A DNA stretch of 64,000 bases, taken from sequence record NZ_CP041325.1, one strand, 5' to 3'. This document shows positions 1 through 64,000 of the stretch, in pieces. Numbering within the stretch: position 1 is the stretch's first letter; each line of letters starts with the position of its first letter. The notes below the pieces were generated by a model that worked only from the letters and a program-made list of their open reading frames with translations, had not been told where the DNA came from and searched no databases. Position numbers and translations under genes: made by a program. This DNA is from a plasmid.

Positions 1-953
1 GTCCGATTGAAGCGATATCCGGCATACGGAAATTCGTCCGGACACCACCGATTTCAACTGCCAGGGAAGATTGGCGAGGGAAAGACCCGACAAGGACTCC
101 GACATCGGTTGTCGTTCCGCCGACATCCACGACCAGTGCATCGGGGTGATCCGTCAGGTAAGCCGCTCCACGCAAGCTGTTGGTCGGTCCACAGGCAATC
201 GTCAATATCGGGTATTTCACTGTGTATTCAACTGACATCAGTGTCCCATCGTTCTGTCCAAAGAATACATCGGCATGGATGCCTTCTTTTTCAAGCGCTT
301 TGACGAAGCCGTCTGCTGTAGAACGGGCGACGTCTACAATCGCAGCGTTTAAAATCGTTGCATTTTCCCGCTCAAGCAAACCGACACTGCCGATTTCACT
401 GGAAAGAGAAATGACGGTCTCCTCACCCATAACTTCTTTAATAATGGCAGCGGCACGCAATTCATGGTCGACCGATACTGGTGAAAAGACAGAAGTGATG
501 GCAATTGAGTCAACTTTACCTTTTAATTCTTCAGCGATACGACGGATTTCCTGTTCATCAAGTGCGGTGATTTCACGGCCATCGAATTCATTTCCTCCAC
601 GCACGATATAAATATGCTTCCCAAGAATCGCTTTCAGGTCGTCCGGAACGCCAACAAGCGGTTTGATGGCCATTGTTGCCGGTGCGCCAATCCGGATTGC
701 AGCGACTTTATTGAGTCGTTTTCGCTCGACAATTGCATTCGTACAATGAGTTGTGCCAAGCATCGCATAACGAAATTGCTCTGTTGGTACACCGGAAGCT
801 GCCACCACTTTATTTAATGCTTCGTAAATTCCGGAACTGACATCCTCTGTCGTGGTTGCCTTTACTTCAGAAATCACATTGTATGATTCATCCAGAACGA
901 CGGCATCTGTATGTGTTCCGCCGACATCGATTCCAATACGGTAATTTGCCATC
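1..953 (-). CDS. hydantoinase/oxoprolinase-family protein, N-terminal about 317 aa (gene runs off the window start)
   Basis: Minus-strand translation from ATG at 951-953, with GGAGGAAG about 9 nt upstream, gives MANYRIGIDVGGTHTDAVVLDESYNVISEVKATTTEDV.... This is a typical N-terminal ATPase fold of hydantoinase-A-like proteins, the usual operon partner of DUF917. All plus-strand ORFs listed here (7..817) are shadow ORFs. Confidence 0.6.
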
Positions 954-2048
954 TTAAACTTCCTCCTTTACAAGCACTAATTCTTCAACTGGCTGGTATG
1001 GCGCGCTGTATCCAAAATATTCAGGGCCTGCGACCTCAATGCCTTTTGGTGTGCGCCATTTCGGATCGCACGGCATACCGATAACGAGGCAGCGTGCGCC
1101 ATAACGAAGGCCTTCGGTCGTAATCGGCATACCGGTTTCTGCATCAAGCACAGCAATCAAATCTGGCGTTACACATACGACTTGGCCGTCCACTTCCGCG
1201 AGCAAGTGCTCGTTTTGGAAATGAAGTTTGCAGGTCTTTCCAGTATTTGAACCGATGCCTTCGATTGAAGCGGTTCCTTTTGCAAAACCATCCTGCGTTT
1301 TTCGATCGATGTCTGTTACTTTTCCTTGGAACAGCTGATGGCCGTTCGTCAATTCAAGAATTTCATCAATTGGATGTTTGCTATTCTTTAATGCTGTCCG
1401 GATTCTGGCACCGATTTTCTCTTCAAGCGACAGGATGTGATGGATTGAAGATTTTTTCATTGTCTTTCCATCCATTTGATAGATGGCATTCATGACAGAA
1501 CCGCCCATCTCGATCGTTGCTTTCCGCGCAATGCGTTCAGCCCACACACTGTCAATGGTATTGAGCAGTAAGCTATTGCCTTTTTCATCAGATATGACCA
1601 TCGGAGTAGCAGAAACACCTTCCAAGTGGAAAGTAACCATCTGAAGTTCCGGGAAAGCCCGTCCCATACCATCTGCATCAATCACCGGAAGCCCAAGTCT
1701 TGCAGCTAGCGCGAGTGGCAGCATTGAGTTCACACCGCCTGCTTCAATTGGCATGGTAGCGTAAATTTTTTTGCCAAGGTACTCCTCAAGCGCTTTAAAC
1801 GCAGCTACAGCTTCATCACCATTTGGAATTTTTTCAACCATGACAGTCGGCGCACCCATCATCGCGGAAGGAACAACCAAGGCATCATCCGGTACTTCCT
1901 CAGGATCGAGTAGACGGATGGGGCCGTATTCTTCGACAGCCTGCAGGGCCATCAATTTCCCGATATACGGATCACCTCCACCCCCAGTACCAAGAAGTGC
2001 TGCACCGATTGCGATATTTTCAATTTCTTCTTTCCCAATTAATCTCAT
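954..2048 (-). CDS. DUF917 family protein (partner of hydantoinase-like protein)
   Basis: Intact 364-aa ORF MRLIGKEEIENIAIGAALLGTGGGGDPYIG.... Its stop abuts the start of the downstream hydantoinase-like gene and its start overlaps the stop of the permease, giving an operon layout. Confidence 0.65.
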   Translation of the reverse strand: MRLIGKEEIENIAIGAALLGTGGGGDPYIGKLMALQAVEEYGPIRLLDPEEVPDDALVVPSAMMGAPTVMVEKIPNGDEAVAAFKALEEYLGKKIYATMPIEAGGVNSMLPLALAARLGLPVIDADGMGRAFPELQMVTFHLEGVSATPMVISDEKGNSLLLNTIDSVWAERIARKATIEMGGSVMNAIYQMDGKTMKKSSIHHILSLEEKIGARIRTALKNSKHPIDEILELTNGHQLFQGKVTDIDRKTQDGFAKGTASIEGIGSNTGKTCKLHFQNEHLLAEVDGQVVCVTPDLIAVLDAETGMPITTEGLRYGARCLVIGMPCDPKWRTPKGIEVAGPEYFGYSAPYQPVEELVLVKEEV

Positions 2049-3389
2049 TGAATGTTCCTCCCTTGTTTAGCTACTAAAGCTGGTTGCTTAGATTCTTGGA
2101 ATGCTTTGCTGACAATCAGTTGAAGTCCGAAGGCAATCAGGAACGCGTCAAATCCTGAAGCTCCCGTCAGATTAAAGAGACCAAATCCGGTCGGGGCAGG
2201 GGTCGTCATAAAGGCGATCAAAGCTGATAGAACCCAGATTGACATGCCCAAGACGTTGACGTTTTTTTGCCGGTCCACTTGTTCGAATGTGTAATTTTTT
2301 CGATTTAGCAGGTAATCTGCCACGTAGATACCGCCAATCGGAGGGATCAGAACACTCAAAAACGATAAGAATGGAATGAAATGTTCATAGATTCCACCGA
2401 CAGCCATTCCTGTGCCAATGATTCCCGCAATAATCGTAAGGATGTATTTGGGTGTCTTCCGGAAAATAACCGAAAACCCGAGAGCTGAAGAATAAAGGTT
2501 GTTATCATTGGTCGTCCACTGCGCCAAGATCAGAATCAGCATAGCTCCTGTACCCCAACCAAGCCCCAACATAATGGAGACAATATCCACTTGAGAAGTC
2601 GCTTTTGCAAGTAAGGCAGCGGTCAGCAGGACAACACTGAAACCGACAAAAAATCCGACGAACGATGAAATGACAGCATCTTTCGGACTTTTTGCATAGC
2701 GAGCGATGTCAGGTCCGATAATAGCACCAACAGCGAGCGAGCCGATGATCAAAGAAATGGATACACCAATCGACAAAGGCTCAGTAGTCAATGGAGCTGC
2801 TGCGACATCCGAAAGCGACTGTCCGTTCATCACACGGATCAGAGATCCGATAAGCAAAAAGCGCGAGAAGCGGGACAGCGAGCAGACTAAGCTTTTCAAT
2901 CGCTTTAAAGCCGATAAAGGCGGTGGTCGTCATGAGAGCTCCGCCGATGATTACCAGTATTTTCCGGTCAACATCTAAGTTGAAAACGTCAAGAAGTATG
3001 GAACGCAAGCTGGAACCAAACAAATCTACTTGAACCCCGAACCAGCCAAAAAGCGAAATGGCGATAATGGCGGATACCGCATAAGAACCATATTTGCCAA
3101 GTGAGAACGTAGAGACAAATGACGTCGAAAGACCGGTTTTTGCACCGACGACTGAGCACAGGGCACTGACTACAGAGAGCAGAAAGCAGCCGATTAAAGT
3201 AGCGATAATGGTATGTGGCATGCTGAGACCAGCACCAAGCGCACCGCCTAAAGCTGTAGCGGAAAGGGCAATAATAGCGCCTATCCAGACGATGGATAAC
3301 CTGAACCAACCCTTACGTTTATCAGCTGGCACCGGCTCCCGTTCGTAATCCTGAATCAATTTTTTTCTCTTGTGTTTTCTCCATCTCAT
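2045..3389 (-). CDS. NCS1-family nucleobase (cytosine/purine/hydantoin-type) permease, split by one apparent frameshift
   Basis: Two overlapping minus ORFs (2781..3389 N-terminal part and 2045..2899 C-terminal part) together give about 448 aa. The product is a polytopic membrane protein with CodB-like N-terminus MRWRKHKRKKLIQDYEREPVPADKRKGWFRLSIVWIGAII.... The frames switch within 2781-2899. Confidence 0.6.
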
Positions 3390-3431
3390 TTCCCCCTCTA
3401 CTTTAAAAAATTTCTCCTAAGCAAGTGATAG

Positions 3432-4023
3432 TCAGACATAGGTTTTTGAAAGTTGATCGAACAAGGTATCAGTCATCTGGATTGCAAGTTTCACTTGTCC
3501 TTCCAAATATGAACTATCGTAAAGGTTGATTCCCCAGAATAAGCCATTTCCAAGCAAGACAAACTGTTTGATAAGTCGATCAACATCGTTTGAATCGATA
3601 GAGGGATAATCTCTGTGCAAAGCATTTTCTAACGAGCCGATAAGCCAGTCGTTAAATTCCAGCATATATTGTTGAAGGTGCGTCTTAATCTCTGGAATCG
3701 GAGCTGTCACGAGCGAGATATAAGAGGATGTCTCGATGTAATCCGAAGTGTGATGGTCAACGATTCCCTGGAGCATGGCAGAAAAAATTCGATCTACCGG
3801 TTCTTCCTGATGTTTCTCCAGCACACGACGCATGGCTTCATGGTGATTGTTTAAAATCTGTTGAAACATTTCAATAAACAAGGCTTCCTTGTTTTCGTAG
3901 AAAAAAGTAGATGGAAGCAGGCTTGATGCCGACTTCATCCGCTATCTTTCTCATCGTTGCTCCTTGATAACCATGCTTCGAATACAGAAGAAGTGCCGCT
4001 TTTAAAATTTCTTCCCGTGTCAT
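3432..4023 (-). CDS. TetR/AcrR-family transcriptional regulator (one-base indel in a T6 run)
   Basis: Start ATG at 4021-4023 with AGGTGG RBS gives N-terminus MTREEILKAALLLYSKHGYQGATMRKIADEVGIKPASIYFF (HTH). It joins the ORF-track frame ...YENKEALFIEMFQQ... if one T is removed from tttttt near 3940. Confidence 0.7.
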
Positions 4024-4139
4024 TTTTTCACCACCTAATAAGTGTTAGGTTGAAGTATAGTACGAAAAAAAGTATAAATCAACAAATTTTTTAGACAAAT
4101 TCGAATTATTGTAATATTGGAATTTACGAAAGGTTTTTA

Positions 4140-4278
4140 TTCCTATACTAAAAAATTATGTTGTTTAAAAATTTTTAAGCTTTACTTAGCTAGTTAAACG
4201 AAAGAAAAGATGGAGGAAACTAGGTTTAAAAAGAATATAAATAGTCCTCATTCGTGAATAGAATTCCTATACTAAAAA
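4140..4278. promoter_or_regulatory. pair of perfect 15-bp direct repeats TTCCTATACTAAAAA (4140-4154 and 4264-4278) in the 640-bp divergent TetR/DUF1177 intergenic region
   Basis: Read directly from the sequence. Their location between the divergent TetR gene and the DUF1177 operon suggests operator sites or a duplicated promoter element. Confidence 0.3.
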
Positions 4279-4663
4279 CCTTTTTTCGTCCTAACCCAAG
4301 GGAAAGAAGAAGAAAAGAAATCAGAAATCACAAATGCACGTCTTTTTTAAGGAGAGGAGGGGTTAAGAAAGAAATTATAAAATTAATTGCCATAGCTTAT
4401 GTTTTTAAAAGAGTGCTAGAAAATAAAATTTGCATCGAGAATTTTAATTGTTAATATAAAGGGGTGTTGGAGTGTTCCGAATTTTCTTTTCATTTGTTTT
4501 TTATTTTCTTGCTATAATACTTATTTTTTCTTTAAGAGCAGAAGAAAATTAAAGGAATGAGGTCTACGGAAGTAGTGCTGAAAAGCCTTCTAAAAAAGGA
4601 AATCGGCAAGTATGGAAATTAAATTTGTGAACTGTACTTAAATCATTTGAAGGAGTGGATTTT

Positions 4664-5602
4664 ATGTCTCTAAAATACACAATGGAGATTATGGAAATAC
4701 TGGATAACGCAAATGTTACTGGTGAAACGGTACAAAATATTTTTAAAGAATTTGAATACTGTGAAGCCAGTTATCAAACAATCCATGGCAACCAAGGCGC
4801 AACTGATTTTGTGAAAATCGTAATCAAGGGAACTGAGGGAAAGGTGAGCGGAGGAAATGCCCCTTCTTTAGGCATTATTGGGAGGTTAGGAGGCATAGGG
4901 GCACGTCCTTCCAAAATCGGGTTTGTTTCGGATGGTGATGGAGCTGTTGCAGCGATTACGTCTGCTTTGAAACTGGCGCATATGTCCGAGAACGATGACC
5001 GACTTCCAGGGGATGTTTATATTACGACCCATGTTTGCCCCCATGCTCCAATAATCCCTCATGAACCTGTTGACTTCATGGGATCACCGGTAGACATTCT
5101 TACCATGAATAAATACGAAGTACTGCCTGAAATGGAAGCTATTCTGTCCATTGATACGACAAAAGGAAATAAAGTGATTAATCATAAAGGAATCGCTATT
5201 TCTCCAACGGTAAAGTCCGGATATATTTTGAAGTTCAGCGAAGACTTGCTGCGAATTATGGAAGTGACTACAGGAGAGCTGCCGGTGACATTTGCTATTA
5301 CAACACAGGATATCACCCCTTATGGGAATGACGTATATCACCTCAACAGCATTCTTCAACCGGCTGTCGCTACACAGTCGCCTGTGGTAGGGGTTGCCAT
5401 AACCGCCAAATCGGCAGTTCCTGGATCAGGGACAGGTGCCAGCCACGAAGTCGATATTGCGCAAGCGGTGCGGTTTAGTATCGAAGTCGCGAAAGAATTT
5501 ACGCAACGCCAACTTAGTTTCTATGACCAAAAAGAATTCGAGCATCTGACGGATTTGTATGGCTCGCTTGAACATTTCCAAACAATGGGGAAAGAAAGTT
5601 AA
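4664..5602 (+). CDS. DUF1177-family conserved protein
   Basis: Intact ORF with ATG at 4664 (MSLKYTMEIMEILDNANV...) and AAGGAG 9 nt upstream. The family assignment is from recollection of the DUF1177/M24-peptidase/OPT gene neighbourhood. The ORF track starts at GTG 4655. Confidence 0.5.
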   Translation: MSLKYTMEIMEILDNANVTGETVQNIFKEFEYCEASYQTIHGNQGATDFVKIVIKGTEGKVSGGNAPSLGIIGRLGGIGARPSKIGFVSDGDGAVAAITSALKLAHMSENDDRLPGDVYITTHVCPHAPIIPHEPVDFMGSPVDILTMNKYEVLPEMEAILSIDTTKGNKVINHKGIAISPTVKSGYILKFSEDLLRIMEVTTGELPVTFAITTQDITPYGNDVYHLNSILQPAVATQSPVVGVAITAKSAVPGSGTGASHEVDIAQAVRFSIEVAKEFTQRQLSFYDQKEFEHLTDLYGSLEHFQTMGKES

Positions 5603-5741
5603 TGAAAAGCTGCAGGTCAATAAACTCATATCTTTGACCAGCCGAAGCTCTCAATGCTAAGCGGTTGTCCCAAAGAGGAAACCTTTTCTTCAGTAAGTTG
5701 AAAATGCAGGATTCCGAAGAAGAAGAAGGAGGTATTATATA

Positions 5742-6828
5742 TGTTTGAAGCACGGAAGAAAAAAGCTGGTGCAGGTATTAAAGAAAAAATGAGATAGGGG
5801 CTATTGTTCTCGTACCGGGACCGAACCTGTATTATTTTACAGGGTTAAAACTCAAACAAAGTGAACGGTTGACGTTGGCAGTTATAACGCAAGAAGCTGA
5901 AACATTTTTTGTTTCACCTCAAGTAGAACTGAGCAAGGTCGAGGAAACAGTAAACGACGATATTTTTTGGTATACCGACGAAGAAGGACCAAGTGGTGCC
6001 TTGTCCCAGTTAAAAAAAAGCAGTGGGAACGCTTGGTATTATCGGGGTCGAATATGATCAAATGAGAGTGATGGAGTTGAAGGCCGTAGAAGCTTTTGAA
6101 GCAGCGGTTGTGGATGGAAATGGGCTGATTAATAACTTAAGGATCTGTAAAGATGAACAGGAAATTGAGCAATTGCAACAGGCTGTCAACATCTTGGAAT
6201 CAAGTTTTGAAGCAGTGCTTCCATATATCAAACCCGGAGTAACGGAAGTTGAAATTGCGGCTCAATTGGAGTTTGAGATGAGAAAGAGAGGTTCTGAAGG
6301 AACACCATTTGGAACAATTGTTGCTTCTGGTGACAGAGGGCCAGTCCTCATGGACGTGCTAGCGAAAAGAAAATTCGTTCGGGAGAACTCGTTGTTATGG
6401 ATTTTGGTGCCATTGTTAATGGATATGTAGGAGATATTTGCAGGACTGTCGCCATAGGAACCGTTTCAACAGAGCTAAAAGAAATCTATGAAATAGTACA
6501 ACTGGCGCAACAGACAGCTCTCGATAGCGTCAAACCCGGCGTGACAGCTCATGAAGTTGACCAAGCTGCGCGCGAAGTCATTGAGAGCCATGGTTATGGA
6601 GAATATTTCACTCATCGTACGGGGCATGGACTGGGTTTGAATTCTCACGAAATGCCTTATCTCATGAAGAACAATGAAATGGTGCTTCTACCGGGAATGG
6701 CTTTTTCAGTAGAACCGGGTATTTATCTCCCGGACAAAGTGGGAGTGCGAATCGAGGATAATCTTATTATTACAGAGGATGGCTTTATCAACCTGATGTC
6801 GTTGCCAAAAGAGCTTCTGACTGTATAG
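5742..6828 (+). CDS. M24-family Xaa-Pro aminopeptidase/dipeptidase (PepP/PepQ-like), fragmented by at least three frameshifts
   Basis: N-terminus MFEARKKK... at 5742 is broken at an A6 run. Pieces 5869..6057, 6023..6430 and 6397..6828 carry pita-bread fold motifs (...GYVGDICRTVAIG..., ...HRTGHGLGLNSHEMPYL..., ...GMAFSVEPGIY...). Confidence 0.65.
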
Positions 6829-6842
6829 AGAGGGGTGCTGGT

Positions 6843-8069
6843 TTGGATACTGAGCAAAGCAGACAAGAGGGCGTTCTTCCGGGAGGGTATTCTTATATCA
6901 ATTCAGCGGCGGCTTCTCCTCCTCCTCAGCAAGTGGTCGACGCGATGGTGGACTATTTGCAAAAAACAGTGGACGTCGGACCGTATTTGCCGGCGTTCAG
7001 AAGCGAGGTTTACCGAAAAATCGATGAAACAAGAGAAAAAGCTGGAAGATTTCTTGGGGCAGATGCATCAGAAATTGCTTTTGTAAAAAATGGGACTGAA
7101 GGAATTAATTTTGTTGCTAATGGCCTTTCCTGGAAGGAAGGCGATGAAATCATATTGGCCGACATTGAATTTCATAGCAATTTTACGCCTTGGCTGAAAT
7201 TGAAGGATAAAGAAAAAGTGACCTTGAAAATTATCGAGACCGATCGATCGGGTGTAATCGATGTACAGCAGATTGAAAAAGAAATCACCGATCAAACCAA
7301 GCTGATAACGGTATCGCATTTGCCGAATGCTTCCGGAGCATTGCAAAAAATTGAGAGGATATGCAACGTGGCACGGAAGCATCAGGTGTTGACGCTCATT
7401 AATGCTTCCCAGACTTTAGGGTTGATTCCTATCAATGTGAAAGAGTTGGATTGTGATTTTTTGACCGGGTGCGGAAGAAAGTGGCTAAGAGGTCCGGAAG
7501 GCTCGGGACTTTTATATGTTAGAAAATCGCTAGTGGAATCGATCGAGCCTACTATTACGGGATGGGGAGGGACCGATTGGGATTTTGAAACAAATGAGTA
7601 TCGTTACATCCCAACGGCCAAAAGACTGGAAGCCGGATGCCCAATTGTTCCATCTATACTTGGACTAAATGCTGCAATCGATTATGCACAAGGGATCGGG
7701 GTAGAAAGCATACGGAAAAAAGTAGAAGCACTAACTCGTTATGCAGTGGCTCAACTTTCTTCAATTCAGGGCATCTCCATTTACGGACCAGAGGACATCG
7801 AAAATCGACTGGCAATTATTCCATTCAATGTTGCCGGCCTCCATCCTGATGAAATCACAAATTATTTAGAGGACCATAAAGTCATCATTGAATCGGGTAC
7901 TTTTATGGCGAACAAGCTGCTTCAACAATATGGTATTGATAAAATGGCAAGATTGTCTCCCCATTACTTTAATACAGAAGAAGATATCGATTTGGTGATT
8001 TCCCTTATAAAGTCTTTACAAAAGAAAAAGAAAAAACTAGCGTTATTCGGTGAATTAAAATCAAAATGA
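6843..8069 (+). CDS. class-V aminotransferase-fold PLP enzyme (cysteine desulfurase/kynureninase-like)
   Basis: Intact 408-aa ORF (TTG start, GAGGGG RBS) with ...TVSHLPNASGALQKIERICNVARKHQVLTLINASQTLGLIPINVKELDCDFLTGCGRKWLRGPEGSGLLYV..., typical of aminotransferase class V. Confidence 0.65.
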   Translation: MDTEQSRQEGVLPGGYSYINSAAASPPPQQVVDAMVDYLQKTVDVGPYLPAFRSEVYRKIDETREKAGRFLGADASEIAFVKNGTEGINFVANGLSWKEGDEIILADIEFHSNFTPWLKLKDKEKVTLKIIETDRSGVIDVQQIEKEITDQTKLITVSHLPNASGALQKIERICNVARKHQVLTLINASQTLGLIPINVKELDCDFLTGCGRKWLRGPEGSGLLYVRKSLVESIEPTITGWGGTDWDFETNEYRYIPTAKRLEAGCPIVPSILGLNAAIDYAQGIGVESIRKKVEALTRYAVAQLSSIQGISIYGPEDIENRLAIIPFNVAGLHPDEITNYLEDHKVIIESGTFMANKLLQQYGIDKMARLSPHYFNTEEDIDLVISLIKSLQKKKKKLALFGELKSK

Positions 8070-8224
8070 ACGATGAGAATAAGCTGCCAGAACCTGAATG
8101 CTACAGGGTACTGGTAAGCTTATTTTTTTGGACAAGTATAAGTTGTTGATCTTACTCTTTAAAAACGCCTTTGCTTATTAAGCAGCATACAGGAGCCAAG
8201 GTATAAGCTTGCCAACGAATAGTA

Positions 8225-8253
8225 TTGACAGTTTCGAATTGTTAAAATATTAT
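8225..8253 (+). promoter_or_regulatory. sigma-A-type promoter for the hyuAB operon (-35 TTGACA 8225-8230, 17-bp spacer, -10 TATTAT 8248-8253)
   Basis: Consensus -35 with correct spacing to a near-consensus -10, 58 bp upstream of the hyuA start. Confidence 0.5.
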
Positions 8254-8265
8254 AAACCTAATTAA

Positions 8266-8280
8266 GAACCAGTGGTTCTA
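8266..8280. promoter_or_regulatory. perfect 15-bp palindrome AGAACCAGTGGTTCT (GAACC-N-GGTTC) just downstream of the -10, candidate repressor operator
   Basis: Perfect inverted repeat read from the sequence. A second half-site TAGAACCAC follows at 8283-8291. It overlaps the predicted transcription start of the hyuAB operon. The spacing is N5, so it is not a LexA box. Confidence 0.45.
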
Positions 8281-8310
8281 TTATAGAACCACAAGAAAGG
8301 GTGCAACTTC

Positions 8311-53285: not shown

Positions 53286-53521
53286 GATTTTGCCTCCTTA
53301 TGCTTAGAAGAAAAGATGTACTATTTAAGTTCGAAGGAGCCTTTCGGTTGTTCACTCCCTGTTCATTCTAACAAGCAAGCTCAAACATTAAAACAACCAT
53401 TTGAATATATAATTGACAATTCAGCGAAAAATTTATACACTTACATTAATCAAACGTTCGTTTGAATGTTTAATTATCAGACGGCTAATAGATAGTGCTG
53501 GTATCCACAAAGGAGTTGGTG

Positions 53522-54137
53522 ATGCTGATAGCCACGATTTTCACAGCGGTTGTCGCTTATGTTGCGACAAGCATTGATTACGTCATTATTTTGCTGATCC
53601 TTTTTCGCAGACGTTGAAAAAGGCCAATTAAGATCCATTGTCATTGGACAATATTTAGGAACTACCATCTTAGTGGGCGTCAGTCTGTTGGCTGCCTACG
53701 GCCTGACACTTGTCCCTCCTCATTGGGTCGGCTTGCTGGGCCTCATTCCCATCTACCTGGGCATCCGGGTCTGGAAACGAGAAGAAGAAGAGGAAGACGA
53801 AGAGAATCTTTTGTCCCGCTTGTCTTCAGGAAAGCCGAACCGTTTGTTTATCACCGTGACAGTCATTACCTTGGCAGCTGGCGGCGATAACATCGGCGTG
53901 TACATACCGTATTTCTCAACCCTGAATCCAAGTGAGACCGTCGTGATGCTGGTCGTCTTCACCATTTTGGTCGCTGTCTTGTGTTACCTCAGTTACCGTT
54001 TGGCATCCATTAAAACAATCTCGGAAACGATCGAGAAATGGGAGCATTGGATTGTCCCCATTGTCTTTATTGGACTCGGCATCTTGATTATGATGGAGAA
54101 CGGAACCTTCCGTTTCCTTTGGGAATTGGTGAGTTAA
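53522..54137 (+). CDS. cadD: CadD-family cadmium resistance transporter, one frameshift near 53610-53640
   Basis: MLIATIFTAVVAYVATSIDYVIILLILF... with GGAG RBS. It continues as ...LGLIPIYLGIRVW...GGDNIGVYIPYF...IVFIGLGILIMMEN, parallel to staphylococcal CadD. Confidence 0.65.
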
Positions 54138-54213
54138 GGTAATTTCCAAAGCTTTGAATGACTAGAGGAAAGTGAACTGCTGGAAGAACGAAACGAAAAA
54201 GGAGTGAAAGAAA

Positions 54214-54579
54214 TTGGCAAAAGATATTTGTGATGTGGTCTGTATAGATGAAGAAAAGGTGGAACGAGTCCAGCAACAATTGGCGGAACAGAATCCATTG
54301 GAAGTGGCGAAAATCTTCAAGGCGTTGTCGGATGATACGCGTATCAAGATTGCCTATGCCTTATCGCTGGAAGACAAACTTTGTGTGTGCGACGTGGCGA
54401 ATATCATCGGCTCTTCCACCGCAACCGCCTCCTACCACCTGCGCTTGTTGAAGAATATGGGACTCGCGAAATACCGCAAGGAAGGCAAATTGGTCTACTA
54501 CTCGCTGGATGACGCACATGTAAAGCACTTGGTGCAAGTGGCCTTCCTTCAACAGAAAGAGGGTGTCACGGTTGGTTGA
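54214..54579 (+). CDS. cadC: ArsR/SmtB-family metalloregulator CadC
   Basis: 121-aa ORF with the Cys-pair context and ...LSDDTRIKIAYALSLEDKLCVCDVANIIGSSTATASYHLRLLKNMGLAKYRKEGKLVYYSL.., which aligns with CadC. Confidence 0.75.
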   Translation: MAKDICDVVCIDEEKVERVQQQLAEQNPLEVAKIFKALSDDTRIKIAYALSLEDKLCVCDVANIIGSSTATASYHLRLLKNMGLAKYRKEGKLVYYSLDDAHVKHLVQVAFLQQKEGVTVG

Positions 54580-55040
54580 AAAACAAAACCGAAGACAAAA
54601 CCGTTTACCGGGTTGAAGGCTTCTCGTGTGCGAACTGCGCGGGAAATTCGAAAGAACGTCAAGCAGATTCCTGGAGTCCAGGATGCGAAAGTGAACTTCG
54701 GAGCTTCAAAATTGCGGTTTACGGCGCAGCGACGGTCGAGGAATTGGAAAAAGCCGGTGCCTTTGAGAACTTGAAAGTGGCACCGGAAAACCGAAACGCC
54801 AACCGGTTCCCGAAATGAAGGTGGCAGTCGAAGACAAAAGTGTTTACCGGGTCGAGGGCTTTTCGTGCGCGAACTGCGCCGGGAAATTCGAGAAGAATGT
54901 GAAGCAGATTCCGGGCGTCCAGGATGCCAAAGTGAATTTCGGTGCATCTAAAATTTCTGTTTACGGAGCAGCGACCATCGATGAACTGGAGAAAGCCGGT
55001 GCCTTTGAAAACCTGAAGGTGGCGCCTGAAATCACCGGAC
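54576..55040 (+). repeat. tandem direct repeat (about 240 bp each) encoding two CadA HMA metal-binding domains
   Basis: Copy 1 (54576-54818) and copy 2 (54815-55040) are roughly 80% identical at the nucleotide level by eye. Copy 1 has two compensating indels relative to copy 2 within the [21 protein letters not shown] stretch. Confidence 0.55.
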
Positions 55041-56997
55041 GTCCAGCTATCCCGAATACCGGAACCGAAAAGCGCCAGAACGAACAGAGAAGAAAGTGCC
55101 GTTCTACCAAAAGCATAGTGTCCTGCTCTACTCCGCCCTGCTGATCGTCTTCGGGTACGTTTCCCAATCGGTGAACGGAGAAGAAAACTTACTGACGTCC
55201 CTCCTGTTTGTGGCAGCCATTGCCATTGGCGGGTACTCGCTCTTCAAGGTCGGGTTGCAGAACTTGGTACGTCTGGATTTCGACATGAAGACCCTCATGA
55301 CCGTCGCGGTCATCGGGGCAGCCTTTATCGGCGAATGGGCGGAAGCGTCCATCGTGGTCATCCTCTTTGCGATCAGTGAAGCACTGGAACGCTATTCGAT
55401 GGACCGGGCCCGGCAATCCATCCGTTCGTTGATGGACATTGCGCCGAAAGAGGCACTGGTCCGGCGGAATGGCCAGGAACTTCTAATCTCGGTGGACGAC
55501 ATTGTGGTGGGCGACACCATGATTGTCAGACCCGGCCAGAAGATTGCAATGGATGGCACGGTGACTAACGGCTATTCGGCGGTCAATCAGGCAGCAATTA
55601 CCGGTGAATCCGTGCCGGTTGCCAAGACCGTGAACGATGACGTCTTCGCCGGCACGCTGAACGAAGAAGGCTTGCTGGAAGTCCAAATCACCAAACTGGT
55701 CGAAGACACGACCATCGCAAAAATCATTCATCTGGTCGAGGAAGCGCAGGGCGAACGCGCCCCATCACAGGCATTTGTCGACAAGTTCGCGAAATACTAC
55801 ACACCGATCATCATGGCAGTAGCTGCACTCGTGGCCATTGTTCCGCCTCTTCTGTTTGATGCCAGCTGGGAAACCTGGGTTTATCAAGGATTAGCTGTTT
55901 TAGTGGTAGGTTGTCCGTGTGCGTTGGTTATTTCGACACCGATTTCAATCGTATCGGCCATCGGGAACGCAGCGAAAAAGGCGTGCTAATCAAAGGCGGC
56001 GTCTACTTGGAGGAAATGGGTGCACTGAAGGCCATCGCGTTTGATAAGACCGGTACCCTGACTAAAGGAGTTCCGGTTGTAACGGATTTTGAAGTTATAA
56101 ACAAACAAATAAACGAAAAAGAGCTGCTTTCCATCGTGACAGCGCTGGAGTACCGCTCGCAGCATCCCTTGCCTCCGCCATCATGAAAAAGCGGACGAGG
56201 AAAATATCCCTTATACCTCTGTCTTAGTCGAAGAGTTCTCTTCCATCACCGGCAAAGGAATTAAAGGAACTGTCGAAGGAATTACGTACTACATCGGCAG
56301 CCCGACCCTCTTTACCGAGTTGGGCGCCGCAAGTACGGATAAGAACTTGGAACAAAATGTCACAGCTCTTCAAAATCAGGGCAAGACGGCCATGATCATC
56401 GGAACGGAACAAAACATCCTGGCGGTCATCGCCGTGGCCGATGAAGTCCGGGACTCCAGCAAGGAAGTCATCCAGAAGCTGCACGACATGGGCATCAAGA
56501 AGACGATCATGCTGACGGGCGACAACAAAGCGACCGGTCAGGCCATCGGCCGAAAGGTCGGTGTCACGGAAATCCAGGCCGAGCTGATGCCGGAAGACAA
56601 ATTGAATGTCATCAAACGCTTACGGGCCGAGTACGGCAAGGTGGCGATGATTGGAGACGGCGTGAACGACGCGCCGGCACTCGCCGCTTCTACCGTCGGG
56701 ATTGCCATGGGCGGTGCTGGAACCGATACGGCTTTGGAAACGGCAGATGTCGCTTTGATGGGCGACGATTTGAGCAAGCTGCCATTCACGGTGAAACTCA
56801 GCCGGAAATCCCTGAATATCATCAAAGCGAACATTACGTTCGCCATCGGCATCAAAGTGATTGCGCTGCTGTTGGTCATTCCGGGCTGGCTGACCCTGTG
56901 GATCGCCATCATGTCGGATATGGGTGCTACTCTCCTGGTCGCCCTCAACAGTTTACGGCTGATGCGCGTAAAGAATAAAGAAACAGCGTGCACCTGA
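54576..56997 (+). CDS. cadA: Cd2+/Zn2+/Pb2+ P1B-type ATPase CadA with duplicated N-terminal HMA domain, about four frame changes
   Basis: Two HMA modules ([13 protein letters not shown]...[15 protein letters not shown]). The TM region contains CPC ([11 protein letters not shown]), DKTGTLT, and ...[13 protein letters not shown].... The ORFs are 54576..54818, 54815..55144, 55096..55989, 55911..56186 and 56320..56997. Confidence 0.8.
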
Positions 56998-57018
56998 AAA
57001 GATGCACGCTGTTTTGCA
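56981..57018 (+). terminator. rho-independent terminator after cadA (12-bp perfect stem AAACAGCGTGCA/TGCACGCTGTTT, then TTGCATTT)
   Basis: Read from the sequence, immediately after the cadA stop. Confidence 0.55.
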
Positions 57019-57024
57019 TTTCTA

Positions 57025-58427
57025 TTAGAAGAAATTCATCGGGTTTACGGCGTTTGAACGAGCTCCGTTCCACGAGCCGATGTGTACTTCAAAGTGAAGG
57101 TGAGGCCCGGTCGAACGGCCTGTACTGCCGACCAGTCCAACCGTTTGACCTTGTGAAATTGCTTGGCCAGCTGAGACTTTAATGGCACTCATATGAGCGT
57201 AAACTGTCGCATAGGATTGACCATTGATGGAATGCGTCAAGATGACGACATTTCCGTAGCCGCCCATTGCTCCTGCATAAGAAACATAACCAGAGGCTGC
57301 TGCAGAAATTGGCGTGCCGGTTACATTGGCAATATCTTGGCCAAGATGCGATTCTGCCCCTGCTCCAATATCACGTCCACCAAATCCAGATGAATAACGA
57401 CCAGATACGGGACGGATAAACATCGCGTTTGATGAAGGCGCCGCTACAGCTTCTTTCGAGCACTTACAGCTGCACGTTCAACTTTTGGCGTGCTCACAGA
57501 TTCTGCCTTAGCAGAAGAAGCCTTGGCACTTCTGGCAGCTTCCGCTTCACGGGCTGCTTGCGCGCTTCTTCTCTTGCTGCTGCTTCTGCCCGCGCTTCTG
57601 CGGCAGCTTTCTCAGCGGCTAGTTTCCGTTGACGTTCTTCTTCCGCTTTTCTCGCAATTTCAGCCAAGCGGGCCTGTTCGTTGGCGATTTGTTGCTCAAA
57701 TCCGCACTAATTTCGATGACTTCGTTGCGTTGATTTTCCAAGCTGCCTTTTTCTGCCGCTAAGCGTTGCTGTTCCGCTTCCAGATTCTGAACCAATCCAG
57801 CCTGTTCTTTCTTCTGACCATCTAAGGAAGCTTTTAACCCGACAAGTTCCGAACGACGTGATTCCTGTTCGGCCAGTTTGGTTTCCACTTGCGCTTTTTG
57901 CTCGGCCAATAATTCTTTGTCGGCCGCCTGGTCGCGCATGATTTCCCGGTCTGCTTCAATCAATGTATTGACAGCCGAGAACCGGTCAATGAAATCGATA
58001 AAGCTATTGGCTCCAAGCAAGACGTCAACGTAATCCACGGAACCGCCACTTAACTGAATGGCACGCGCACGTTCTTCCAAGAGATCTTCACGTTCGGCAA
58101 TTTTTCGTTCCAGTTCTTCAATCGATTTTCTCAATTCATCGATTTCGACTTTTGTCTGATCGATTTGAGCTTGAACATTGTTGATTTTGGCTTGGGTATC
58201 ATTGATTTGGGTATTCAGATCCGCTATTTTCGCCGCCAGCTGTTCCAGCTTGGAAGCGTTTTGATTGATCTGCCCAGCTTTTCATTGATGCCGGAATTCA
58301 ATTCACTTTGCTGCTGTTGTGCTTCTTGCTGTTTTGTTCCAATTCGCTTAATTTATCCGCATTCGCTGTTGGCACTAAAATTGACAAGGCCAAGACAGTG
58401 GATAAACCGGTTACCATCCATTTCGAA
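57025..58427 (-). CDS. M23-family peptidoglycan DD-metalloendopeptidase with N-terminal signal peptide and coiled-coil region, frameshifted
   Basis: C-terminal M23 domain (..HLGQDIA...GNVVILTHSINGQSYATVYAHMS...GSTGRSTGPHLHFEV). The coiled-coil segment is 57619..58134. An Ala/Lys/Arg-rich low-complexity linker lies near 57430-57640. The N-terminal signal MVTGLSTVLALSILVPTANA starts at 58425-58427. Confidence 0.6.
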
Positions 58428-58791
58428 ATCAAGTACTTGTTCCCCTTCCAGAATCTTTCTACTGTTTTGCTATGTATTAGTTGGATTAAGCTCCAAGTCG
58501 ATTGCTCGGTGAAGCTAAAAATTTGTCTAGGTTATGTGATTCTACATTTTGTCGAATTATGTTTCCTTAAAAATCCGACTTGCTTAGTATACCAGCTAAA
58601 CATTTAGTTCCTGTTACATTTATATTTCATTTTATTCTAGCAACGAAATATTTGTGTTTTAATTTTACAATTCCGATTGCTCTACTAATACGCTTTTTAT
58701 TAAGGTTACCTACTTAATTTCTTTTACCCAGAAGATGACTGGAAGGAAAAATAAGGAGCATGCAGAAATTAAAACTGACAGGGGCAGAGTG

Positions 58792-59413
58792 TATTGAATA
58801 ACTACTGGAATAAAATCATTTATAAATTATGGTCCCCGGTCTACGATATATTCTTCAACGCGGGCCCTTTCTGGCTGCACGGAAAAACGTGTTCCATGGA
58901 ATAACCATCAATCATCAACAACAAGTTTTGGTGGTCGGTGTCGGAACGGGAGCTGATTTAGAACTGTTGGATCTGGATGGAATGGAGATTACCGCCATAG
59001 ACTACTCGGAAGATATGCTCAATCAAGCCCGAAAGAAGTTTAAAGACTCCTCCATTCAATTCATAGAAATGGATGCCCAACAAATGACATTCGCTGACAA
59101 CCAATTTGATGTGGTCATCGGAAGTTTGATTCTTTCCGTGGTTCCCCATGCAGAAGATTGTTTTAAGGAAATGGAAAGAGTGTTGAAGCCTGGTGGAGAA
59201 ATACTGCTCTTTGATAAGTTCCTTCCTAGAGAAAAAAGCTCTCACTTCCTAAAAATGATTCGACCCGCCATTAAATTATTAGGAACCGATATTGGCTTAG
59301 ACTTTGATAGATTGGTCGAAAATAATAATGGAACCTTACTTGTTAAAGAAGATGTCCCGGTCCTGTTCAATGGAATGTATAGAAAGATTGTTCTCAGCAA
59401 ACAACGTATTTAA
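58792..59413 (+). CDS. class-I SAM-dependent methyltransferase (one frameshift at an A5 run near 58880)
   Basis: TTG 58792 gives LNNYWNKIIYKLWSPVYDIFFNAGPFWLHGK..., then ORF 58829..59413 with motif-I VLVVGVGTGADLELL. Confidence 0.55.
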
Positions 59414-59620
59414 GGGGTTCATAAAAATATACTTACCTATATTATATGGAAGGTATTTAATCTATCTTGATAAGGACGGACTATCAACCGTGTTAAGTTA
59501 GAATTTATACAGGACTTAGCTTGACATTCCTTCACATTCTTCCTTATAATCAATATATGAACATATGCTCATATATTGATATTTGTTTATCCATTCTATT
59601 GGAGGTGTCTACCAACATGA

Positions 59621-59948
59621 CGCAGGAGTTTGAAAAAGAAGTAGGTTATATGGAAAACGAACATCCGTTGGATGAAGAAACCCTTTTGTCGTCTCTCAAA
59701 CATTCAAGGCATTGAGCGATCCGACCCGTATCCGTATCTTGAATTTGCTTTGTTCCGCGGAACACTCGGTGAACGAATTGGCTGAACGATTGATTTGGGC
59801 CAGTCTACCGTGTCGCACCAATTGCGTTTTTGAAGCAGTTGCGACTGGTGAAATACAGAAGAGCTGGGACCACTTTATACTATTCAAAGACGACGACCAC
59901 ATCATGAACCTGTTGAAACAAGCCATTGAGCACGCTGCGCATCATTGA
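59621..59948 (+). CDS. ArsR/SmtB-family metalloregulator (CzrA-like), about two frame changes
   Basis: Pieces MTQEFEKEVGYMENEHPLDEETL..., ..FKALSDPTRIRILNLLCSAEHSVNELAERL.. and ...DDDHIMNLLKQAIEHAAHH (C-terminal His-rich metal site) lie across frames. Confidence 0.6.
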
Positions 59949-60021
59949 GAACAAAATTGGAAAATGTCTAAAAGCATGAATGGCTTTATAAGGAAGAATA
60001 ATTTTGAAAGGAGGAGTTGAA

Positions 60022-60980
60022 ATGGCACATGATCACAATCATGACCACACGCACGGAGCAAACAAAAGGTGCTGTTCATTTCTTTTTAATCATTACAAGT
60101 TACATGATTATCGAGGCCATCGGAGGTTTTCTCACCAATAGTTTGGCGCTTTTAGCGGATGCCGGCCATATGCTGAGCGATTCCATTTCACTGGCGATTG
60201 CCCTCATTGCCTTCAAACTGGCTGAAAAAGTGGCGAACTACAGCAAAACCTATGGCTACAAACGGTTTGAAATTATCGCCGCGGTCATCAACGGTGCCAC
60301 ATTGATTGGCGTGGCCCTTTATATCTTTTATGAAGCCATTGACCGGTTTGCTAACCCACCAGAAGTAGCAACGACCGGCATGCTCATTATCAGCGTCTTT
60401 GGATTACTGGTTAACATCCTGGTCGCTTGGATTATGATGCGCGGTGGAGATACAGAAGATAACTTGAATATGCGTGGAGCGTATTTGCATGTACTGAGTG
60501 ACATGCTGGGATCAATCGGCGCCATTGCGGCCGCCTTGCTCATCATGTTTTTGGCTGGGGATGGGCGGATCCCGCAGCAAGTGTAATCGTGGCAGTCCTC
60601 GTCCTACGAAGCGGGTACTATGTAACGAAGGCTTCTCTTCATGTGCTAATGGAGGGAACGCCTCAAAACATTGATGTAGAGGACGTCCTACAGACCATTA
60701 AAAGACAGAGGGAATCCAAGGTGTTCACGATTTGCACATTTGGTCGATCACCAGTGGACTCAATGCCTTGTCGTGCCATGCGGTTGTAAATGATCAGCTC
60801 ACCATCGCTGAGAGTGAAAGTATGCTGCACCGGATTGAACACGATTTGACGCATAAAGGAATTACGCATGTCACAATCCAGCTGGAAACCAGTGCCCATG
60901 AACATGATGAGTCCATTCTTTGTACGGCAAAAATGAACCTTCACACGATCATCACCATTAGGATGAACAGTTGTAGTTAA
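60022..60980 (+). CDS. czcD: cation diffusion facilitator family Zn/Co/Cd efflux transporter (CzcD-like), frameshifted
   Basis: N-terminus MAHDHNHDHTHGANK... (His-rich). The TM domain has ...LLADAGHMLSDSISLAIALIAF...HVLSDMLGSIGAIAAA. The C-terminal cytoplasmic domain is in ORF 60589..60789 and 60732..60980 (...HVTIQLE...). Confidence 0.7.
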
Positions 60981-61212
60981 ATCTTTATAGTTTTGTGATG
61001 CAAGAAATTCATTTTTCGTTTGGTAAGTAATTTAATATATTTCATAGTTGATTGTCTGTTACTTTTCTTTGAAAGTTAGACTTCAATAAAAATTAAAATG
61101 TGAAAAAGAAGAAGGTCAACCGGCCTCTTCTCTTCTTAAATCTATTGTCTCTTTTCAGCTACCGTTGTTAAAAGGGTATATTCTGGAGCGGCAGTCAAAA
61201 ACAGGCTTTCCT

Positions 61213-61506
61213 TTAATTTTTCCATAATCCAATCATGCCTCTTCGGCGATAAATCACCTTTTCACGTTCGAGAACCTCGAGTATTTTAACAAGCATATAA
61301 GAAGGAATACTTAAATCAAAAGCTATCTCTTTGACTGTCTTAACCAAAACTCCATCTGCCGTAGAATTCTTCAGGAAGTATTTCGTAAATCTCTCCCCAT
61401 TTTTGATGATTTCCTTGCTTTCTTCAGCCAAACAATTCCGTGCCTCCTCTACCATTCTTGGCTCTATAGACAACTTCGTGTGCTCGTATCGATATTTCGA
61501 AAACAT
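61213..61506 (-). CDS. hypothetical 97-aa protein (possible winged-helix regulator)
   Basis: Intact ORF ending ..LVKILEVLEREKVIYRRRGMIGLWKN, weakly wHTH-like. No confident family. Confidence 0.3.
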   Translation of the reverse strand: MFSKYRYEHTKLSIEPRMVEEARNCLAEESKEIIKNGERFTKYFLKNSTADGVLVKTVKEIAFDLSIPSYMLVKILEVLEREKVIYRRRGMIGLWKN

Positions 61507-62132
61507 TTAGAAACCTCCTCTCCTCCTTGAATCGCACAAATCATCAAAAGGTAAAATTTTTAAGGAGCTTGGCTTAGTTCCAGAAGGATAATTTTCTTAT
61601 GTAAGATAACAGACCGACTATTTTAAGCTTTAATTCAGCAACTTGAGCACAAGCATAGGTATAAAAGGTTTTCTATGATTATCTAGTTAATATTCTATCG
61701 GTTGAACGTTTTGAAAATCTATCTTCTCTAAATTATACAATGAGTATTTAGTTGAGAGTATAGTAATTAAAGTGTTCGTAGAATCACGCTGACGTAAAAA
61801 CTTCACGAGAAGCTCTTTTTCTGCCAATATTCTGATGGTACGTAAACGTACTTTTAGAAAACATAGAAAAAGCGCCTAAAATGAATTCTCTTAGGCGCTT
61901 CTTCTATAAATGAATTTTATCTTTCCTCACTCGAAGACTGCACGGCCAACTGAAAATTTTCGTAGCTCTCCGGTCCAAACTTTTCCGGATCCCCTGGAAA
62001 AGGTTGCCAGCATGAAATCCCGTGCGCAATCGACGTCACATTCCTGTGAGTTCATAACAAGGGATAAATAAGAACGGAAATAGTCGGGCTGCAAACACCC
62101 TCCGTGATTTATGGTCATCTTTCACCGCTCCT

Positions 62133-63415
62133 TTAGCAGCAGCCTGAACTACCAGCTGCAACCGGTTGTGTGCCGTTCGGTGAAAGGTTGACGCTGCAGA
62201 CACCGGTTTCCGGCAGATCCAATTCCACGTTCTGGGCGGCCTCGAAATCTCCCGTGAGGTACGCCACGACGGAACGGACCTGTTCATATCCGGTGGCCAT
62301 CAGGAACGTTGGCGCCCGGCCGTAGCTCTTCATGCCGACGATGTAGAAATTCTTTTCGGGCTGCCGCAGTTCCCGTTCGCCGTGCGGGCGGACTGTGCCG
62401 CAGCTGTGAAGGTTCGGGTCAATCAGCGGCGCCAGTGCATCCACACTTTCGGTGGCCGGATCGATGCTGAGGCGCACTTCGCGCAGGAATGAAAAGTCCG
62501 GTTGACTGCCAGTATTGACGATCACTTCATCGAATCCCTCAATCGAATGGTTCGCTTCCTTCCATTCCCCTTCCAGCGTCAACGTTTCCCCGTTTCGGTT
62601 CACGTCATAAATCCGATAAGGTGTGTACACGTCCACTTGGCCTGAATCCACCAGCTGATGAATCCGGGAACCCAGTTCGCCCCGTGCTTGAAGCGCATCG
62701 TTCGCTTCTCCGCCATAAGCGTCTTCCACGTTGTTCTTGCGCAGAATCCACGTGATTTTCGAATCGGGCAGTTCGGCCAGTTCCAGGATGGTATTGATGG
62801 CGGAATGGCCGCCGCCTACCACCGCAATCTGCTTTCCGGTGAACCGTTCACGATCCTTTCCTTGAACATCCGGGATGCCGTAATAGATGTGCTGACTCAG
62901 CTTCTCTTCGTTTTCGTCGTTATGCCGCCGGCACTCAACGAGTTCGGCTGTCCCCAAGTTCCCGTAGCGTCGATGATGGCTTTCGCTTCGATGCGCTGGG
63001 TCGTTTCTCCGTTTTCTTCTAGATAAAGGACAAACGGCAGATTTCCCCGGCCAGCGGTCTTCATTTTGTCTTGGCCTTTTCGGCTGATGCCCAGTACCCG
63101 GGTATGGAGCTGGATAAAGGGCTGAATGGCTGGCAGCTCTGCCAGTTTCATCAAATACTGGTCGACCAACTCCTTGCCTGTCGGCAGCTCTTCGTCCGAA
63201 GGCGCTTCCCACCCGATTGTTCCAACAATTCCCGGGCGACTTTGTCGATGTTGTACTGCCAAGGGGAAAACAGGCGAACGTGTCCCCACTGCGATACGTG
63301 ATGGCCGATGGAGGTCCCTGCTTCGAGCACCGGAACTTCTCTCCGGCTTTCGCCAGATGCGCGGCCGTGGCCAATCCAACCGGACCGGCCCCAATGATGA
63401 CAATCGGCAACGCAT
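62133..63415 (-). CDS. FAD/NAD(P)-binding flavoprotein oxidoreductase (CzcO-like), spread over three frames
   Basis: Dinucleotide-binding N-terminus LPIVIIGAGPVGLATAAHL. The pieces are ..VLEAGTSIGHHVSQWGHVRLFSPWQYNIDK.., ..PTGKELVDQYL...KAIIDATGTWGQPN.. and a second Rossmann motif ..KQIAVVGGGHSAINTILELA... The GC-rich codon usage differs from its neighbours. Confidence 0.55.
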
Positions 63416-63550
63416 TCGTTTCTTTTTCGGTAAGTCAAACTGGATGGGAAATGCCTTCGGTGAACAACAAGCTGCTTGCGTGTTCATATAACTTCCTCCT
63501 TTGGTCGTTCTATAATAAAACTTGATTTTGCAAGTATTAATTCCGTTCAT

Positions 63551-63823
63551 TTAAAACATGGGCTTGCAACAGACCGTTGACTTGGCCATGGCTTGGTTCA
63601 ACAACTGCATCGATTGCAAGACAATTTCGCGTTCGAATTCATTCAAGTGCGAGAAAATCTCGTCCAGATGCGTCTCGATGCCTTGCAGCTCCATCTGAAG
63701 AACGGTTTTCGGGAAGTCGGCCGCCGGGAACGCATCGGCCAACGCGCTGGCGTATGGCGAGACACGATTCTCCTGGAAAGAAGAAGCCAAGTGAATGGAT
63801 GGGCATAAAAAGAGCTCACCCAT
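63551..63823 (-). CDS. hypothetical 90-aa protein
   Basis: ORF only. It overlaps several alternative-frame ORFs in a GC-rich stretch. Confidence 0.25.
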   Translation of the reverse strand: MGELFLCPSIHLASSFQENRVSPYASALADAFPAADFPKTVLQMELQGIETHLDEIFSHLNEFEREIVLQSMQLLNQAMAKSTVCCKPMF

Positions 63824-63838
63824 GAGCTCTTTTCATCT

Positions 63839-63997
63839 AGCACCCGGTTGGTGCGCCAATCATGACCAGACCGGCTTGTTCTCCCTGTTCCTCGAAATCC
63901 AAGGTCAGGTTGTCTGCGATTTCTTTTGCTTCCGGGGCAACCGCCATCCGGATGCCGTTAACGTCCAGTACATCGTCTTTTCGCTTCCGGCGCATCC
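63839..63997 (-). CDS. hypothetical small protein at the window edge (may extend beyond 64000)
   Basis: Minus-strand ORF ...MRRKRKDDVLDVNGIRMAVAPEAKEIADNLTLDFEEQGEQAGLVMIGAPTGC* ending at about 63839. Whether the N-terminus is complete is unclear. Confidence 0.25.
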
Positions 63998-64000
63998 AGC

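Follow-up and report, generated by a model that had tools for sequence, protein, structure and literature searches.

Why are most of the recognisable genes in a 64,000-nucleotide (nt) stretch of plasmid record NZ_CP041325.1 (here called the window, analysed over its whole length) cut into several open reading frames (ORFs)? A preliminary description counted at least 35 of about 55 genes as split and favoured sequencing insertions and deletions (indels) at homopolymers over gene decay. Its count is borne out, since mapping the indels onto the gene calls of relatives leaves 41 of 55 genes with one or more indels private to the window. We are very confident that the broken genes reflect uncorrected homopolymer-length errors, from sequencing or assembly, in the deposited record. 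Near-identical assemblies, a run-length curve, hits in non-coding DNA and the selection on the broken genes all support this choice of errors over decay. The errors also fall into two regimes along the contig, a structure that is new relative to the preliminary description.

Gene fragmentation within the window

A frame path was built from codon usage (Viterbi), and the frame-repaired translations were then scanned against Pfam. In these translations, at least 22 frame junctions lie inside unbroken domain alignments. The domains include TetR_N, Transp_cyt_pur, Creatinase_N, Peptidase_M24, OPT, Resolvase, Mur_ligase_C, methyltransferase, HAMP, two E1-E2_ATPase, SpoIIP (twice), Nramp (twice), DsbD_2, AhpC-TSA, CopC, Thioredoxin_4, Cad, Hydrolase and Cation_efflux. 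That the gene fragmentation is real, and far above chance, is confirmed. The frame path is adequate at normal GC content, misses shifts in an island of 28-30% GC, and reads close double deletions as '+1' (for example in CadD at 53,600/53,617 and in CadA at 54,640/54,652). Because it merges such double deletions and under-calls the low-GC island, its insertion and deletion labels were replaced by those from reference-based alignments.

Frameshift-aware protein-to-DNA alignments took as references intact homologues from finished plasmids and GTDB genomes, and a concatenated chain of 2,985 amino acids (aa) served as a tblastn query against plasmids. The alignments place 13 events in the left part of the window and ~47 in the right part. 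The longest run within 8 nt of an event has a mean length of 5.6 on the left, compared with 3.2 at random coding positions, and of 4.1 on the right, compared with 3.0 (Mann-Whitney p = 4e-8 and 2e-9, respectively). In a six-way alignment of CadD-ArsR-CadA, the window has seven private single-base deletions and the five relatives have none. One further candidate lesion, an in-frame stop at 63553 in an FAD oxidoreductase, was dropped, as it lies upstream of the true start codon.

Comparison with near-identical assemblies

The comparison with orthologous loci in close relatives that the preliminary description had proposed was run at nearly zero divergence, and the genes broken in the window are intact there. 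Relatives were retrieved by exact-protein look-up with intact window proteins and with members of their 99% clusters. Near-identical coverage extends over window positions 1-14,816 (reference L095, Logan SRR31173164), 25,744-43,184 (L108) and 44,265-63,684 (L099), where L108 and L099 are two parts of a single 48-kb Logan contig, SRR31173164_146356. Exact-protein look-ups of the window HyuA, of its identical counterpart P0176 and of the 534-aa ATPase returned no match, and the 17.7-25.7 kb island is without a near-identical reference; positions 63,685-64,000 also lie outside this coverage. A scan of genome contigs with HyuA gave no relative, and an exact scan of viral contigs gave no match.

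Over 36.9 kb, the window differs from contig SRR31173164_146356 by 139 indels and 22 substitutions (38 indels and 6 mismatches in the L108 part, 101 and 16 in the L099 part). The indels are nearly all single bases in homopolymers, and all 44 of 44 genes on the contig are intact. For a sequence 99.9% identical in substitutions, such a ratio of indels to substitutions is not a biological one. Reference L096 (Logan SRR31173159) is 99.94% identical to window positions 8,182-13,180, with two mismatches and one indel, and L095 is 98.75% identical over its whole segment, where 163 mismatches are accompanied by 20 indels, namely 12 of +1, six of -1 and single events of +3 and -2. Altogether there are 159 window-private indels in 51.7 kb (20, 38 and 101 in the three covered segments, from left to right). 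A single base is involved in 147 of the 159 and 2-4 bases in the other 12; for L099 the corresponding numbers are 91 and 10 of 101. No large deletions appear in the comparisons with L095, L108 and L099, insertion sequence (IS) elements not having been specifically searched for. In a three-way alignment the window has 20 private single-base indels, and the two relatives have 2 and 5.

The genes that are broken in the window are single full-length ORFs in L096, L095, L108, L099 and at least six further records, among them ENA contigs whose k141_ names follow the MEGAHIT style, as well as NCBI assembly GCA_024171615.1. The indels occur regardless of function: their density is 0.8-4.6 per kb in coding and 3-7.5 per kb in non-coding DNA, so that non-coding DNA is affected at least as densely as coding DNA.

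Two local features of these comparisons are of a different kind. Seven of the 16 mismatches against L099 are grouped within 31 nt of cadA (55,296-55,326), the rest being 99.9% identical, and the cluster has the appearance of a small tract of recombination or else of a local fault in the consensus. Relative L094 (~1,463-1,684, corresponding to window ~3,272) has a 4-bp insertion of its own (AATA) that splits a cytosine/purine permease. This is the kind of change produced by real evolution, unlike the single-base homopolymer changes of the window.

Dependence on run length

Miscalls become smoothly more probable as runs grow longer. When sized against L099, A/T runs are correct in the window in 99.4% of cases at length 3 (n = 493), 95.9% at length 4 (n = 193), 59.7% at length 5 (n = 72), 3.2% at length 6 (n = 31) and 0% at lengths 7-8. 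For G/C runs the figures are 89% at length 4 and 11% at length 5. Runs of at least 6 are thus shortened in 97-100% of cases, by 1-3 bases each. The same curve could be produced by mutation only if the process were saturated. The junctions that had been traced were assigned to A/T homopolymers; A/T runs are indeed affected, but not they alone, as G/C runs account for 22 of the 100 deletions against L099.

Two error regimes along the contig

The true indel density is ~3 per kb overall (the values for the two parts are given in Table 1). An estimate of about one per kb from the ORF pattern was too low because events close to each other, such as those at 53,601/53,617 and 54,641/54,651, cancel and are invisible in that pattern. 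Nor is the error profile uniform; it changes along the window.

In the left part, insertions are found at runs whose deposited length is 5-8 bases, and the typical error is +1 in runs of 4-7. The segment 25,744-36,483 has eight events of +1 and seven of -1 relative to L108. Six of 53 true A/T runs of 5 are read as 6 and two of the 53 as 4, while two of 27 true A/T runs of 6 are read as 7. The A/T run spectrum of positions 1-37,000 (148 runs of 5, 64 of 6, 22 of 7 and 5 of 8) looks natural, the control spectrum of a finished Planococcus plasmid being 212/72/17. Positions 37,001-64,000 contain 107 A/T runs of 5, six of 6 and none of 7 or more, as well as two C/G runs of 5, and this spectrum departs strongly from that of the control plasmid (Fisher p = 1.6e-8). 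Relative to the same finished plasmid, runs of at least 6 are depleted 8-fold on the right, where runs are effectively limited to length 5 and nearly all homopolymers of 6 or more are shortened.

The direction of the errors changes as well. The last insertion before the switch is at 36483 (G5 read as G6). Beyond it, positions 36,531-43,184 have 23 deletions and no insertions relative to L108, and positions 44,265-63,684 have 100 deletions and a single insertion relative to L099. The right part as a whole thus has 123 deletions and one insertion, while the left is mixed and insertion-rich, giving two directional profiles rather than one. A Fisher test of direction between left and right gives p = 2.6e-5. 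In a change-point test on A/T runs alone, the support interval is 28.7-37.1 kb. The contig of the relatives passes through the switch point without a break, and a search for internal repeats of the window found none that marks or explains it. There is no biological boundary at 36484-36530, and the switch probably has a technical origin, for example incomplete polishing or a difference in data or in coverage.

According to the proposed mechanism, single bases would have been added to or removed from runs of identical bases, shifting the frame and cutting functional genes into 2-6 ORF pieces. Up to ~36.5 kb, the errors are moderately frequent and of either sign, most often +1 in runs of 4-7. From ~36.5 kb on, they are frequent and nearly pure deletions, with a probability that rises from ~4% for runs of 4 bases to ~100% once runs reach 6. 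The right profile is what would be expected of an unpolished nanopore-type long-read consensus, and the left profile may come from a part of the same assembly that was incompletely polished or was sequenced in another way. Sequence alone does not identify the platform used.

Genes described as intact among the broken ones are in part truly so. HyuA, HyuB and the polymerase are unaffected, but the response regulator and the aminotransferase each carry a +1 that alters the C-terminus. Mis-sizing of long runs on the left is ~15%, a rough estimate based on ~14 events at long runs. The probability that the eight long runs in HyuA and HyuB would all escape is ~0.27, again a rough estimate, from run positions. 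Intact genes are therefore compatible with chance given their own run content, and HyuA, HyuB and the polymerase need no special explanation because only ~15% of long runs on the left are mis-sized.

Individual lesions

Six examples had previously been assigned to particular runs; four of them were compared with reference sequences, and these hold (Table 1). The IclR shift lies in an A-run at 12261. This +1 A is the sole indel relative to L096, is private also with respect to L093, L094, L095 and L098, and interrupts a regulator that is intact (254 aa) in all five of these relatives. For TetR, the A6 at 3901 on the plus strand is the T6 that had been named on the coding strand; the Pfam TetR_N alignment crosses the junction, and the indel is private relative to L093, L094 and L095. 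For the M24 peptidase, an A-run at 6012 is indeed affected, although it is an A8 and not the A6 that was described. Creatinase_N and Peptidase_M24 alignments cross the junctions of this gene, which is intact (361 aa) in relatives. The five-base run named for the methyltransferase is the T5 at 29131, and the gene is intact (220 aa) in L108, L109 and L110.

The resolvase site is outside near-identical reference coverage. Its insertion is located at 25342 by frameshift-aware alignment at 91% amino-acid identity, and is seen in a DNA alignment to L003 too; the Resolvase domain crosses the junction. A near-perfect 48-nt palindrome (25,731-25,778) lies directly upstream of the resolvase, and the relatives' 48-kb Logan contig stops at 25,744; the palindrome probably constitutes a res site or else marks a mobile module's repeat boundary. 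The junction between a SIR2-like region and an NTPase, described earlier as lying at an A6 run, and two shifts inside SIR2 also fall outside near-identical coverage and were examined by frame-junction zones only; the junction zone includes a T6 at 24004.

On the right, CcdA/DsbD is intact (235 aa) in L099-L102, and the CadA P-type ATPase is intact (806 aa) in L099, L100 and L104. Among the CadA deletions are two A6 runs recorded as A5 (55975 and 56186) and a C4 recorded as C3 (56166). The ArsR-family regulator (111 aa) and the CDF transporter (314 aa) are intact in L099 and L100. A different kind of lesion is present in the GNAT acetyltransferase, which is intact (187 aa) in L108 and L109. Its in-frame TAA is the sole nonsense lesion found in the window and one of only six substitutions relative to L108; it may be a real mutation or a substitution error.

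Table 1. Error regimes, lesions and gene content of the window (positions in the 64,000-nt stretch)
Feature	Position	Strand	Description
Left error regime	1..36483		Mixed +1/-1 single-base homopolymer length errors, ~1.4 per kb
Regime-switch interval	36484..36530		Intergenic terminator region, response regulator to four-helix-bundle copper-binding gene
Right error regime	36531..64000		Almost only deletions, mostly of one base, 3.5-5.2 per kb
TetR	3901..3906	-	A6 on plus strand should be A5; +1 inside helix-turn-helix domain
M24 peptidase	5759..6338	+	+1 at 5759, 5784 and 6012 (A8); -1 at 6338 (G-run)
Aminotransferase	8031		+1 extending C-terminus
IclR	12261..12265	+	A5 should be A4; +1 splits regulator
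Resolvase	25338..25345	-	T8 with +1 splitting gene
GNAT acetyltransferase	28243..28245	-	In-frame TAA; GAA in all relatives
Methyltransferase	29131..29319	-	+1 at 29131 (T4 read as T5) and at 29312 (T7 read as T8)
Response regulator	36483..36488	+	G6 should be G5; +1 alters C-terminus
CcdA/DsbD	49754..50452	-	Six single-base deletions in 700 nt
CadA P-type ATPase	54579..56977	+	12 deletion events
ArsR-family regulator and CDF transporter	59617..60958	+	4 deletions in 330 nt; 5 deletions
Hydantoinase/DUF1177/OPT cluster	0-14.5 kb		
Low-GC defence-like island	17.7-26.5 kb		
Y-family polymerase, MurE paralogue, two-component system			Also present in window
Metal-resistance and thiol-oxidoreductase genes	from ~36.6 kb on		P-type ATPases, Nramp, ResA/CcdA/DsbB/DsbA, CopC/CopD, CadD/ArsR/CadA, CDF

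Selection on the broken genes

The ratio of non-synonymous to synonymous substitution rates (dN/dS) gives no sign of relaxed selection on the disrupted genes, in which it ranges from 0.036 to 0.13. The repaired CcdA, with six shifts, is 97% identical to the Planomicrobium protein L012 at a dN/dS of 0.036, and CadA, with seven shifts, has a value of 0.052; both match the 0.025 of the intact ArsR. Private substitutions on the terminal branch of the window in five broken genes of the hydantoinase cluster are 11 non-synonymous and 61 synonymous, with no stops. The same five genes in relatives with intact copies have 38 and 133. Neutral drift produces roughly three non-synonymous changes for each synonymous one. 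The selection signature of the broken genes is that of working genes. The three-way alignment gives 270 private substitutions in the window, and 361 and 343 in the relatives. The window is thus not on a long branch.

Errors or mutations

The lesions are private to this record, depend on run length, strike coding and non-coding DNA alike and come without relaxed selection, all of which fits uncorrected homopolymer-length errors. Several points weigh against that reading, or against its completeness. The 5-7 apparent frameshifts of the 17.7-25.7 kb island are read from frame-path and junction-zone analysis only. The GNAT lesion (28245) is a nonsense substitution and not an indel. The left regime abounds in insertions, unlike the usual unpolished nanopore consensus, and a few non-coding indels relative to relatives of 95-98.75% identity may be real evolutionary differences. 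Finally, we infer both the platform and the origin of the two regimes.

Some of these points would be accommodated if nearly all lesions were errors and a few, such as the GNAT stop and some non-coding indels relative to L095, were real. We regard such a mixture as unlikely, although not negligibly so. The GNAT stop is a substitution rather than a homopolymer indel, some of the non-coding indels relative to the 95-98.75% relatives are of the kind that real divergence produces, and the split permease of L094 demonstrates that a relative can itself carry a 4-bp insertion. However, one stop-creating error among six substitutions in 17.4 kb is not improbable, and data at single sites do not separate a real lesion from an error. 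There is only a slim chance that a few lesions are biologically real (the GNAT stop and some of the homopolymer changes on the left) or that the switch is a physical property of the DNA, for example a differently modified or differently covered segment.

Genuine large-scale pseudogenisation, with frameshifts fixed in the strain on a decaying plasmid, is highly improbable. It would account for disruption of 41 of 55 genes and for the one real-looking nonsense codon in GNAT, and slipped-strand mutation does favour homopolymers. However, it is difficult to reconcile with 139 indels beside 22 substitutions relative to a near-identical contig, with the shortening of 97-100% of runs of 6 or more, or with the presence of just one nonsense codon and no large deletions. 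Genes with 6-7 shifts retain a dN/dS of 0.04-0.05, and the terminal branch has 11 non-synonymous to 61 synonymous changes where neutrality predicts ~3:1 in the other direction. Non-coding DNA is equally affected, and the profile switches abruptly at an intergenic point without functional meaning.

We give just as little credence to a hypermutator lineage deficient in mismatch repair, in which the homopolymer indels would be real and very recent. Loss of mismatch repair strongly raises the rate of single-base homopolymer indels, and more so with increasing run length, so a dependence like the one observed would be expected. However, lineages of this type also gain many transitions, and only 22 substitutions accompany the 139 indels. 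The window has fewer private substitutions than either relative in the three-way alignment, and its not being on a long branch therefore argues against a hypermutator. In addition, such near-saturation of all runs with 6 or more bases would mean thousands of frameshifts across the genome, essential genes included, and mutation leaves two sharply different directional biases on one replicon unexplained.

A correct window beside faulty assemblies of the relatives, for example through mis-sizing of homopolymers by short-read assemblers, is scarcely conceivable. Nothing specific speaks for it, at least 10 independent records that differ in sample and assembler are in mutual agreement and have full-length ORFs and complete Pfam domains, and the longer runs are common to the more distant finished genomes L012, L015 and L001. 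Programmed frameshifting and phase-variable contingency loci were rejected, since 41 of 55 genes in every functional class are affected, the tracts are ordinary runs of 4-7 nt and the relatives read through them in one frame.

Comparison with known artefacts

The error that characteristically remains in long-read bacterial assemblies is the gene-fragmenting homopolymer indel, which survives where polishing is unsuccessful (PMC8812927, PMC9262707). Like unpolished nanopore assemblies (R9-type), the window has single-base homopolymer indels that are deletion-biased, become likelier with run length, fragment gene calls, and are absent from a short-read assembly of the same sequence (PMC9262707, PMC8812927). 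It differs in its near-total loss of runs of at least 6, which is harsher than modern basecallers give, and in its insertion-rich left 36 kb. Contigs that were polished unevenly also combine cleaner stretches with others in which the error profile of the raw long reads persists, the latter being attributed to regions where short reads cannot be placed (PMC8812927). However, no repeat inside the window explains an unpolished right half, and even the 'cleaner' half of the window still has ~1.4 errors per kb.

Flow-based chemistries (454 and Ion Torrent) both over-call and under-call homopolymers. The left regime, with its +1 and -1 miscalls at runs of 4-7, resembles this pattern, but the pure deletion bias of the right regime does not fit it. 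Pseudogene-rich genomes, such as those of Mycobacterium leprae and recent host-restricted symbionts, have nonsense codons, indels of varied sizes, IS expansion and relaxed selection. The window shares with them the interruption of a majority of genes, but has neither the range of indel sizes nor the relaxed selection, and only one possible nonsense codon. The feature is thus a known data-quality artefact and not a real biological one.

Gene content and origin of the window

All 682 residues of the window HyuA are identical to protein P0176 (0 differences, 100% identity), which is named 'hydantoinase/oxoprolinase family protein (plasmid) [Planococcus glaciei]' (sources QDY47001.1, QKX52881.1 and WP_176295305.1). 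Because of this identity, the window is almost certainly part of a Planococcus glaciei plasmid record. Its content is a mosaic of Bacillales accessory genes with a GC content from 28% to 54%. A tRNA scan and an Rfam scan of the window found no tRNA and no Rfam family.

The IclR-OPT transporter-DUF1177 neighbourhood of the hydantoinase cluster (4,655-14,475) is also present on a Klebsiella pneumoniae plasmid (L007), the OPT proteins of the two being ~55% identical. This recurrence suggests that the neighbourhood is a horizontally mobile catabolic module. In CadA, the N-terminal heavy-metal-associated domain is tandemly duplicated (54,590-55,031), as a ~200-nt repeat of 85% identity with a spacing of 242 nt. 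The CadA of a more distant Planococcus plasmid homologue (L001) has a single copy of the domain.

The low-GC (28-30%) defence-like island includes, within 18,604-26,515, an AAA_15 ATPase whose best PADLOC matches are NsnB and AriA (PARIS-like). Its 400-aa partner has no family match. The SIR2-like region is followed by an nSTAND3 NTPase, ~1,040 aa when repaired, with no PADLOC match, and the island also contains the resolvase and an orphan ThsB-like TIR protein at 26,087-26,515.

Implications for use of the record

Pseudogene calls, split-versus-fused calls, start and stop coordinates and homopolymer lengths in the window are all untrustworthy. The apparent SIR2/NTPase split (21.8-24.9 kb) is an example: it is unreliable, and one gene versus two is undecidable from this record. 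The near-absence of runs of at least 6 from a homopolymer spectrum marks unpolished stretches and can serve as a diagnostic that needs no reference. Intact relatives to check against are the Logan SRR31173164 contigs, ENA assemblies ERZ27265761 and ERZ27285383, and GCA_024171615.1. The metal-resistance genes look dead in the window, yet they are intact in every relative.

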